A DNA stretch of 64,000 nucleotides, from positions 2,919 through 66,918 of the forward strand of contig JAJXWI010000003.1 in the NCBI GenBank assembly GCA_021781705.1. Direction: 5' to 3'. Positions within the stretch are counted from its first letter, which is position 1. Each line of letters starts with the position of its first letter. The notes under the pieces are model-generated. The model worked only from the letters and a program-made list of their open reading frames with translations. It did not search any database and was not told the origin of the DNA. Source of the stretch: a bacterium (GTDB lineage Bacteria; Verrucomicrobiota; Lentisphaeria; Victivallales; GWF2-38-69). Positions 31,180 through 33,036 of this stretch are shown one piece after another. The position numbers were made by a program, and so were the translations under genes.

Positions 31180-32610
31180 CTAAAATTGCGGCAAAAGGAT
31201 ACGTATTGGCATCTCAGTTATTTTGGATTTTATTAATTCTAGCCCCTTAGACGGAGGCAATTCCTCGACTTGATTATACCCCAATTCTCGTAGGTAATGC
31301 AAGATACCTCGTGTGCAATTAGGAGGCAATGTTGTTCTATCTGGGTTAAGGTGAGCATCACCCACAACAAGAATTATATTTGGCTCTGGATGTTGTACGA
31401 TTAATTTTATGGCCTCAAAATCCAGTAAGTTGGTCGCAACTACATAGTTTGAAAACGGATTAAAGTAAAAGTTCATAATAATACCGAACCCTGCTATATC
31501 TTGTAAGATTGTGTCGTATATTAATTCGCCAAATGGTGTATTGTCGTACGTGCGTAGTATATCTGCTATACTCATTTTCTTAATATTCTCTTTTTCCCCT
31601 ATGAGATCATACTGGGACAACACAGTTTCTAATAATTCAGCAGTACCAAATAAATTCAAAACAGGCAAATTCATGATATAACACTTTTTTTCAATAAGAT
31701 CATATACGCTGGTGCCAGATAACTCTTGAAGCAATTTAGGCATACTTTGTGATAATTGATTGTAATAATCAGCAGGTGAGTCTTTTTTTGGACTTTTTGA
31801 GCTTCCTGGTATTTTGATGTTTTCAGTAAGTTCCTGCAATGTCAACTTAATATCCTCTCGAATAGACTTGGCATCTCTGCAATTCGCTTCAAAAAATATC
31901 TGACTTCTGGTAAGATAATCTTCAATTTTACATACAATTTCTTTATAAGTTAATTTTCCTTCTTGAGTATTTTTAAGACTTAGTGCTCCACACATATACT
32001 CCAAAGGTACTTGATCACATGATGGAAGCTGTATGGCAGGGGTAATTTTTTGCAACGCTTCACGTTCTCTTGTATAATAAGTCTCTCTATATTGGTTTAT
32101 TTTTGCCATAACAAAACCATTACGAACAAAAAGGTCCAGAATATTAGAGGAATCATATATAGTTCTGCTTGCCATGACTGTCATATCTCCAATTAATCTC
32201 GCACGTTCCTCGGGATCGGCATCGCAAAGTTCTACTATTCCTTCGGCAGCAGCTTTTTTGATGACTGGATGGTAATTTATGCAATGCATCATCGAAAAAA
32301 GACGAGTTAGATCTGCTGCTGGATCTCTACATTCAGATGCATGTGGTAGTATGGTATGATACATAAGCTTTTCACGTAGGGAACGTGCACTTTCAGCCCT
32401 ATTACTAAGTCCTTCATAAATTATACACACTTTCTTTCCATTTTTTGTCATAGCTTTCACAGATTCGGCAAATGTATCAAGCTCATCACGTTCATTAGCG
32501 TTTGTTCCCAAGAAATGATCATCACCAAAAATAAAGATATGCTGATTTCCACGCGTGTAATGATAGTAACTTTCGGATAGTCCATAAATGGCATTTATTG
32601 ATAGAAACAC
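31180..32610 (-). CDS. Hypothetical protein, possible Tiki/TraB/ChaN/EreA-superfamily member; 5' end apparently frameshifted
   Basis: GTG-start ORF. HIFIFGDDH...CIIYEG near the N-terminus and ILVVGDAHL...GILHYLRELGY near the C-terminus recall the paired GxxH/E motifs of that superfamily. An ATG at 32653 encodes a signal-peptide-like leader in another frame. Confidence 0.5.
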   Translation of the reverse strand: MFLSINAIYGLSESYYHYTRGNQHIFIFGDDHFLGTNANERDELDTFAESVKAMTKNGKKVCIIYEGLSNRAESARSLREKLMYHTILPHASECRDPAADLTRLFSMMHCINYHPVIKKAAAEGIVELCDADPEERARLIGDMTVMASRTIYDSSNILDLFVRNGFVMAKINQYRETYYTREREALQKITPAIQLPSCDQVPLEYMCGALSLKNTQEGKLTYKEIVCKIEDYLTRSQIFFEANCRDAKSIREDIKLTLQELTENIKIPGSSKSPKKDSPADYYNQLSQSMPKLLQELSGTSVYDLIEKKCYIMNLPVLNLFGTAELLETVLSQYDLIGEKENIKKMSIADILRTYDNTPFGELIYDTILQDIAGFGIIMNFYFNPFSNYVVATNLLDFEAIKLIVQHPEPNIILVVGDAHLNPDRTTLPPNCTRGILHYLRELGYNQVEELPPSKGLELIKSKITEMPIRILLPQF

Positions 32611-33036
32611 TACTATATATGAATTGAAAAAATATTTTTTTTATTTTTACCATAATAAATCTTACTCCATAACAACAATTTTTAAACTATATCAAAGTAA
32701 CAAAAAAGCTCTTCAGCAAAATGTGCGGGCAAAATTATAGAGTAAAAGCACATATAGTTCAAGAGAATTGGGGATTTTTTTTAAGATATTGGTGTTGTCA
32801 GATCTCTGCTACTGCGCTTCCGACAAGATGGTGTGTTGATTGTCAAATGAGTTTCATTTTCACCGAGCCGATCTATAGGGCAGGTTGTGGGAACTATCAA
32901 GAGTATTACAGCAAAAATTTTGTTTCATGAGTTTCCTGAATTGAAGCGTTGTCTTTGGGCTGGAGAATTAGGGACCCGAACAGCTTTCGCATGAAGCTGT
33001 AAAAAAATGCCCCCGCTACTCTGCGGCATGAGTTCT

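Follow-up and report, generated by a model that had tools for sequence, protein, structure and literature searches.

A signal-peptide-coding region apparently put out of frame at an A/T homopolymer in the gene of a probable, very divergent TraB/GumN-like protein from a sparsely sampled Verrucomicrobiota lineage

The gene considered here lies in a 64,000-nt stretch of a Victivallales (Verrucomicrobiota) genome (assembly GCA_021781705.1, contig JAJXWI010000003.1, positions 2,919 to 66,918; hereafter the window, whose coordinates are used throughout), between clpB downstream and a gene for a dCache-HAMP-PAS-GGDEF protein upstream, and all of its features are on the minus strand. The main open reading frame (ORF) spans 31180..32610 and comprises 476 codons including the stop, with an enzyme body that is intact and free of further lesions. 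Its gene-called start is a GTG (32608..32610), the first start codon of this frame, which falls in the middle of a hydrophobic core and has neither a Shine-Dalgarno (SD) sequence nor a purine-rich stretch upstream. A second candidate start, an ATG at 32651..32653 that is taken to be the authentic (ancestral) one, opens another frame with MVKIKK, the charged n-region of a leader. This ATG is preceded by an SD sequence, GGAG (32665..32668), at a spacing of 11 nt, which is within the range seen in the window, where the spacer is 7-10 nt for most GGAG-bearing genes and 14 nt for one. About 80 nt upstream of the ATG is a sigma-70-like promoter candidate (TTGAAC-17 nt-TATAAT, 32734..32762; 10/12 matches), which is a consensus match only, as the region holds 12 such sites compared with 8.6 ± 2.7 in shuffles.

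From the ATG at 32653, the minus strand reads ATG GTA AAA ATA AAA AAA ATA TTT TTT CAA. Codons 4-7 thus hold an A8 homopolymer (plus-strand T8, 32635..32642), a candidate site for a +1 insertion, and 2 bases (T-A) past it is a T6 homopolymer (32627..32632), an alternative site for the same event. Relative to the frame of the ATG, the main ORF is in the +1 register past A8, and direct reading of the sequence shows it to be closed upstream by a TAA (32641..32643) composed of a T and the first two A's of the A8 run. In the A8 state, the ATG frame gives an out-of-frame ORF of 43 aa (32522..32653; MVKIKKIFFQFIYSS…), the product of which is probably a meaningless by-product and was called in no assembly of the collection by exact look-up. 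The ATG, the GGAG, the A8/T8 run, the GTG and the out-of-frame MVKIKK had all been described in an earlier sequence-only reading of the window, and each was found as described.

Scripted edits of the two runs define which changes rejoin the frames. Deletion of one A (A7) yields a 490-aa protein, MVKIKKYFFNSYIVVFLSINAIYG-LSESYY…, starting MVKIKKYFFNSYIVVFLSINAIYGLSESYY…, exactly the product that the sequence-only reading had expected from the removal of a single A. Its 24-residue Sec-type signal peptide (MVKIKKYFFNSYIVVFLSINAIYG) is encoded by a region (32581..32653) that the frameshift splits. Frame is also restored by A10, which gives a 491-aa ORF, and by T5 or T8 in the T6 run, while the A9, A6 and T7 edits give only 12-13 aa (13 aa for A9). 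The A8 run proposed in that reading is hence a valid frameshift site, but the adjacent T6 run, which it had overlooked, is equally so. The arrangement as a whole is beyond chance: a promoter-like site, an SD sequence, an ATG and an n-region of charge +3 stand in one frame, and a hydrophobic core and a 476-codon ORF in the next.

When 1.84 billion representative proteins were searched exhaustively with phmmer, a sole relative of the window protein (P0001) was identified, a protein of 453 aa with 32% identity (P0002; E = 1.4e-16), which is encoded on a 35.6-kb Logan contig of 36% GC (L089). The N-terminus of P0002, MKYYQSCKLNVIKIVCLGILTSVGSIYG-LIDK…, is an intact leader in frame with the rest of the protein, its n-region positive and its core hydrophobic, and BLASTP pairs the leader segment ILTSVGSIYGL with VFLSINAIYGL of the repaired window protein, the two having the pattern …S-I/V-x-x-IYGL in common. 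On the basis of this alignment, the GTG at 32610 falls in the middle of the homologous hydrophobic core. The leader DNA of P0002 has no long homopolymer at the corresponding position. The repaired N-terminus has a best 10-residue Kyte-Doolittle mean of 2.60 and a net charge of +3. The evident signal peptides and lipoproteins of the window have hydropathies of 2.5-3.5, and window proteins without an N-terminal hydrophobic segment mostly reach about 2 or less (ClpB 1.32, GlmS 1.04 and DnaN 1.27), as does the N-terminus read from the GTG, at 1.52 and without charge. The aligned P0002 leader, the hydropathy and charge, the SD sequence and the promoter-like site together support the view that the gene properly begins at the upstream ATG with this leader, the frame of which is lost across the homopolymer, and the repaired protein would be expected to be exported by the Sec pathway.

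The proposal that a plausible Sec signal peptide had been put out of frame by the homopolymer is thereby upheld, and the comparison with a relative agrees, in that P0002 does not start leaderless and its in-frame leader aligns with the repaired one. The description of the protein as an orphan was nearly right, the exception being this one distant relative. No further relatives of P0001 and P0002 were found by word-indexed search with protein and profile, nor in GTDB species representatives, JGI metagenomes or viral contigs, and a hidden Markov model of the pair gave no further match in all ORFs of the fetched loci (~1.1 Mb, 80 clpB neighbourhoods among them). Similarly, no relatives of P0001 were found on plasmids (tblastn, E ≤ 10; spurious O-antigen ligase matches only), and a word-indexed search found no orthologues at 50-90% identity in the collection.

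The blocks conserved between P0001 and P0002 are HIFIF-GDDHF-GT, IIYEGLxNRAExxRxLREK, DPExRxxLxGDM and VVG-x-x-H…DRxT…GILxxLxxxG-x-x-V. In the numbering of the repaired protein, the first motif, G43-D-D-H46 (32515..32526), follows a predicted beta-strand (HIFIF), is invariant in both members and pairs with the GSIH of the TraB/GumN family. E80 (32413..32415), within IIYEGLxNRAE and 34 residues past H46, is likewise invariant and pairs with the glutamate of the family's LIVE-A-D. The second motif, G431-D-A-H434 (31351..31362; GTNH in P0002), is followed by GILHYLRELGYNQV and pairs with VGALHL…GLxxLLxxQGYxV of TraB/GumN. Over this second GxxH and its helix, P0001 reads VVGDAH434L…GILHYLRELGYNQV and P0002 reads IAGTNHI…GILEFLKAQGMSEV, compared with VGALHL…GLLALLEQQGWRI and VGTMHLHGKEGLLKMLSKKGYKV in family members. 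Basic residues conserved in the pair are K416 of P0001 (Arg in P0002), R85, R90 and R93. Between the two halves of the core is a predicted all-helical insert of ~215 residues (171-384; 31501..32142), which is poorly conserved between the two members and modelled at low confidence. AlphaFold2 models of the protein had predicted local distance difference test (pLDDT) values of 38 for P0001 alone and 37 with the two-row alignment, too low for a fold search.

The TIKI superfamily comprises the TraB/PrgY/GumN family (PF01963; YbaP, Xanthomonas GumN and Enterococcus TraB/PrgY), Tiki1/2, ChaN, EreA/EreB, Bcr135/136, RRSP and HopBA1. It is defined by a conserved basic residue, by an alpha/beta core built around a parallel sheet and by a set of two His and two Glu residues arranged as an acidic-x-His, a Glu ~28 residues on and a second His (PMC6254334). 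The window protein resembles TraB/GumN proteins in the order of its parts: a strand with G-x-x-H, a helix, a strand with a Glu ~30 residues on and a helical middle, after which come a strand with a second G-x-x-H and an amphipathic helix ending L-x-x-x-G-[YFWM]-x-V. Export would be a further likeness, as many members of the family are exported. As in RRSP, an acidic residue stands two positions before the first His (D44-x-H46 here, E-x-H in RRSP; PMC6254334). In contrast, the R-N (Arg) motif that precedes the second GxxH in TraB/GumN has no aligned counterpart here but falls in a gap of the hhalign alignment (Arg-4001 being the counterpart basic residue of RRSP), the helical middle is ~215 residues long compared with roughly 150-190 residues from the Glu to the second GxxH in YbaP, and P0001 and P0002 have conserved blocks of their own (EGLxNRAExxRxLREK and DPExRxxLxGDM).

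Family profiles were seeded with E. coli YbaP and divergent members found on plasmids from Proteus, Rhizobium, Aeromonas, Aureibacter, Lysinibacillus, Sphingomonas, Ralstonia, Sinorhizobium and Paraclostridium; membership of PF01963 was confirmed for two of the seeds, and a search with YbaP gave close enterobacterial homologues only. Alignment by hhalign against YbaP alone, or against a shallow YbaP alignment, was not significant, though the expected motifs pair. Against a first, diverse profile of 11 PF01963 members, the two-member profile of P0001 and P0002 scored 30.4 bits over its full length (P = 0.0031) and 32.4 bits with the insert removed (P = 0.0006), and none of 150 column shuffles reached the observed scores (nulls of 14.8 ± 2.3 and 13.9 ± 2.4). 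Against the final 13-member profile, the scores were 29.7 for the full length (P = 0.0036) and 28.9 for the core (P = 0.0019), and 0/342 real ORFs reached them (null of 14.8 ± 2.9, maximum 24.5). The core alignments follow one colinear path, pairing GDDH with GSIH, IIYE with LIVE, VVGDAHL with VGALHL and GILHYLRELGY with GLxxLLxxQGY.

Several results speak against this kinship. Neither P0001 nor P0002, nor insert-less constructs of them, matched PF01963, PF04187 or PF05139 in Pfam at E ≤ 10, neither protein matched NCBIfam, and no match was found in the PDB by sequence or profile. Likewise, in the real-ORF null for the 11-member profile (15.1 ± 3.0), 1 of 330 unrelated ORFs, a DNA ligase and thus a false positive, outscored the query. 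The hhalign probability was only 9-28% for the 11- and 13-member PF01963 alignments. YbaP itself has no PDB relative, and a scan of viral contigs for TraB/GumN found none. The resemblance to Tiki/TraB/GumN proteins proposed from the paired motifs IFIFGDDH…IIYEG and ILVVGDAHL…LRELGY thus has moderate support from hhalign, which places four blocks in register at P = 0.002-0.004 with 0/342 ORFs scoring as high, but not by the curated models of Pfam and NCBIfam or by the PDB. Taken together, the protein probably belongs to the TIKI superfamily as a very divergent member of its TraB/GumN branch and, because of this probable membership, may be regarded as a putative exported hydrolase (protease or esterase). 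Two other domain matches, CwfJ_C_1 (E = 0.02-0.06) and Csx1_CARF (E = 0.05-0.16), were dismissed, being below the Pfam threshold and absent in P0002, and a metallophosphoesterase reading of the 'GDxH' motif was rejected, as the order of the motifs is wrong and Pfam gives no signal.

Homopolymers of this length are common in the window. Its 64 kb hold 25 A8/T8 and 4 A9/T9 runs, compared with ~5.3 and ~1.6 expected from base composition, so that A/T runs of at least 8 bases (29 seen, ~7 expected) are in about fourfold excess; two of them are tolerated in an essential gene, clpB (28338-30926), at 28402-28409 and 29669-29676. When each run of at least 7 A/T or at least 6 G/C bases was edited by ±1, nearly all proved to be located in intact ORFs, which would be cut short by an indel, the others falling between genes, and the few edits that lengthened an ORF were trivial, for example the fusion of adjacent genes. 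The remaining 28 runs of at least 8 bases leave the ORFs of the window unbroken. The A8 tract is not unusually long for this genome, nor is the genome riddled with frameshifts; rather, the locus is a single lesion at a natural hotspot, the AAA-AAA Lys-Lys codons of the signal-peptide n-region.

Eleven contigs encode exactly the 476-aa product, and 8 loci from 8 samples were retrieved for them by a look-up of the exact protein, a procedure able to return 'OFF' copies only. These loci derive from 4 ENA assemblies (k141 contigs), 2 NCBI metagenome-assembled genomes (MAGs; GCA_027457625.1 and GCA_027452705.1) and 2 Logan assemblies, three sources that use different pipelines. A8 and T6 are present in 8/8, with 0 mismatches over 1701 nt around the gene. 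At least 4 haplotypes are represented, L002-L005 differing from the window at 4-7 positions (33418-33457, 35619, 36215-36248 and 30303). The densest variation among the haplotypes is in the GGDEF gene (33037-35529), where single-nucleotide polymorphisms at 33457, 33448, 33445 and 33418, all within 40 nt, are common to L002-L005; this cluster (33418-33457) may be a small recombination tract. The in-frame products of A7, A10, T5 and T8 were absent among 15 billion proteins by exact-sequence look-up, P0001 is alone in its own 90% cluster, and the 490-aa form, used as the query of a word-indexed search, returned P0001 only and no ON allele. Every sampled population is in the out-of-frame state.

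A sister species (L104/L105; ~80-86% nucleotide identity) has the block aas-dnaN-SIS-uppS-cdsA-glmS in common with the window. In the 10 kb fetched downstream of its glmS, the order of genes differs and no trace of the gene was found. Because of this different order and the lack of an orthologue at 50-90% identity, the gene looks lineage-specific or accessory.

The explanation preferred here, with moderate confidence, is a fixed +1 insertion that has left the gene either a young pseudogene or in a stable OFF state. The insertion, from A7 to A8 or from T5 to T6 in the direction that appears most likely, would have struck a homopolymer in the part coding for the signal peptide. Ribosomes starting from the SD sequence and the ATG at 32653 would then read MVKIKK, lose the frame and stop after 43 codons, leaving the hydrophobic core and enzyme body in the +1 frame, where they could be reached only from the SD-less GTG within the core. 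In the A8 state, little or no enzyme would be expected to be made, and any that was made would not be exportable, though a single slippage event could return the gene to frame. As is expected of a pseudogene, the frame is broken relative to an intact homologue, P0002, and the lesion is the consensus in the sampled populations. The absence of further lesions in the ORF body suggests that the lesion is young. Of the three options offered by the sequence-only reading, a decaying gene is the best supported.

The locus resembles the homopolymer frameshift pseudogenes of AT-rich bacteria in having one +1 indel in a 5' A/T run with the rest of the ORF intact, in that the lesion is the population consensus, and in that an intact homologue exists elsewhere. 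Unlike these, it has no secondary lesions and has kept its promoter-like site, SD sequence and ATG. From the lack of secondary lesions and the retention of the start signals it would follow that the lesion is very recent or that the body is still under selection. Several other points count against a fixed frameshift. The intact ORF body, with all candidate catalytic residues, fits a functional gene equally well, and several genes in the window are without an obvious SD sequence, so that some initiation at the GTG (32610) is possible. Moreover, minority tract lengths are invisible in consensus assemblies, and the sampled populations are almost clonal (≤ 0.08% divergence), such that 11/11 OFF copies say little about long-term stability.

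A slipped-strand phase-variable switch, also raised by the sequence-only reading, is the next explanation to be considered and is unlikely, though not implausible. Slippage in A8 or T6 would turn a secreted enzyme ON (A7, T5, A10 or T8) or OFF, the sampled populations all being OFF. Contingency loci of this kind, with poly-G/C or poly-A/T tracts in 5' coding regions, are found in surface and secreted genes of Neisseria, Haemophilus, Campylobacter, Helicobacter and Mycoplasma; simple-repeat phase variation is not known to have been described in bacteria of the Planctomycetes-Verrucomicrobia-Chlamydiae (PVC) group. The gene is like these loci in that the homopolymer falls no later than codon seven, where such tracts are classically sited, in a gene whose product would be exported, and in that the ON and OFF states are one slippage step apart, as either of two adjacent homopolymers could restore the frame in one step. 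The gene body and expression signals are intact, and the gene looks accessory, as noted above for the sister species. It is unlike them in that no tract-length polymorphism or ON allele was observed, either across the 8 loci and at least 4 haplotypes, all A8/T6, or among 15 billion proteins; in that the A8 tract is equalled or exceeded in length by 28 other runs of the 64 kb, including those in housekeeping genes such as clpB; and in that no repeat is kept at this position in P0002. In an AT-rich genome, Lys-Lys codons (AAA AAA) in an n-region also yield such runs as a by-product. One-step slippage, as in the earlier proposal, is mechanistically feasible at either run, but the assemblies are uniform in tract length and the tract itself is ordinary. 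Still more doubtful is the combined proposition that A8/T6 is the working export switch of a very rare Tiki-like branch with 2 known members and a helical insert of ~215 residues.

The gene could also be expressed in its present state by recoding, whereby RNA-polymerase slippage (−1 or +2) on A8/T6, or +1 ribosomal frameshifting on AAA-AAA-A, would give some exportable protein; this is very unlikely. Slippage rescue is found at poly(A) tracts of Buchnera and Blochmannia, in Shigella mxiE and in Thermus dnaX, and in described cases the run has at least 9 bases. The frameshifted tssM gene of Citrobacter is reportedly also rescued by transcriptional slippage (PMC4256274). The window gene is similar in having a frameshift in an A run of an otherwise intact gene, but its run is of 8 bases, and rescue would require −1 or +2 events, whereas slippage mostly adds bases. 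A/T runs are known substrates of transcriptional slippage, the frequency of errors rising exponentially with run length, but the errors are in their great majority +1 insertions, and a homopolymer rarely loses a single base (PMC5574713). Here, the dominant +1 events are unproductive, as A9 and T7 give 13-aa products. In addition, the −1 ribosomal frame terminates within 13 codons, no stimulatory element was found, the Rfam matches in the window being two tRNAs only, and the arrangement is not conserved, P0002 being in frame with no run at the site. Rescue by recoding is disfavoured on these grounds.

A comparably low probability attaches to the idea that the 476-aa product of the GTG (32610) is a functional, leaderless cytoplasmic protein, with the upstream ATG and its short ORF either incidental or serving for regulation as an upstream ORF. 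In favour of this idea, the gene is called from the GTG in every assembly, an SD sequence is missing from some genes of the window, and some TraB/GumN proteins, for example E. coli YbaP, are without an evident signal peptide. However, by homology the GTG falls within what is the hydrophobic core in the P0002 leader, and an N-terminus starting there would retain only half of such a core, with no charge and no SD sequence. Ribosomes translating the 43-codon ORF would also pass the GTG unterminated, as the stop of that ORF is ~85 nt downstream of it, and the promoter-like site, SD sequence and ATG are positioned for the leader. Finally, indel errors classically occur at homopolymers, but an extra base introduced by sequencing or assembly into a genome that is truly in frame, the remaining option of the sequence-only reading, is extremely unlikely because all 8 assemblies, from 8 samples, three sources and at least 4 haplotypes, agree exactly on A8/T6, and the other 28 runs of at least 8 bases in the window leave their ORFs unbroken.

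The wider window is chromosomal, with dnaN and recF (44.9-47 kb) coinciding with the minimum of the cumulative GC skew, which is at ~42-44 kb and adjoins dnaN-recF; Pfam scans found no DnaA domain on the ORFs flanking dnaN. The sister species lacks ~550 nt that cover the 5' part of recF (window 45989-46537; L104 5587-6120), and its dnaN-aas interval has no called recF. An 810-aa ORF with no family match (37372-39804, minus strand) contains an internal tandem duplication of two units with a period of 1242 nt and ~70-80% nucleotide identity; the sister species lacks this whole gene, and its glmS is directly followed by the orthologue of a 155-aa ORF (36327-36794). A protein of 386 aa (24743-25903, plus strand) combines a signal-peptide-like N-terminus (MKKSYIVITCIIWACFLNSVFG) with a C-terminal eukaryote-type MYND zinc finger (PF01753, E = 3e-10), which is unusual in bacteria. 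Three large ORFs in a row, of 284, 911 and 529 aa, occupy 54423-59836 (minus strand), and two of them, otherwise unassigned, have at their N-termini the pseudopilin-like signatures that mark proteins C and B of the 'Verru_Chthon cassette' (TIGR02599 and TIGR02598), the strongest hint of a PVC-group host. A 471-aa ORF (62391-63806, minus strand) contains the beta (18-249) and gamma (294-468) regions of 2-oxoacid:ferredoxin oxidoreductase and appears to be a subunit fusion. The window also encodes a sigma-54 activator.

The best match to clpB among the matches listed is from a Victivallaceae MAG at 64% identity, and none of ClpB, DnaN and the class I aldolase shares its 90%-identity cluster with another of the 15 billion proteins. 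The lineage is very sparsely sampled in public data, and the uncultured host, which has a low GC content, probably belongs to the PVC group and is probably an anaerobic diderm. An intracellular (Legionella- or Chlamydia-like) host delivering the protein as a secretion-system effector was considered and dropped, as the gene content fits an anaerobic PVC-group bacterium.

Under the preferred reading of a fixed frameshift, the 476-aa protein with a GTG start in public assemblies is a truncated call and should be flagged as a pseudogene or frameshifted coding sequence rather than annotated as a leaderless protein. The locus provides a clean example of how the AAA-AAA lysine codons of a signal-peptide n-region create a frameshift hotspot in AT-rich genomes. 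Without switching at the level of reads, it would represent the ordinary early decay of an accessory gene, one coding for a secreted enzyme, in a lineage that is seldom sampled. If the kinship is true, P0001 and P0002 would add a very divergent, two-member branch to the Tiki/TraB/GumN hydrolases.

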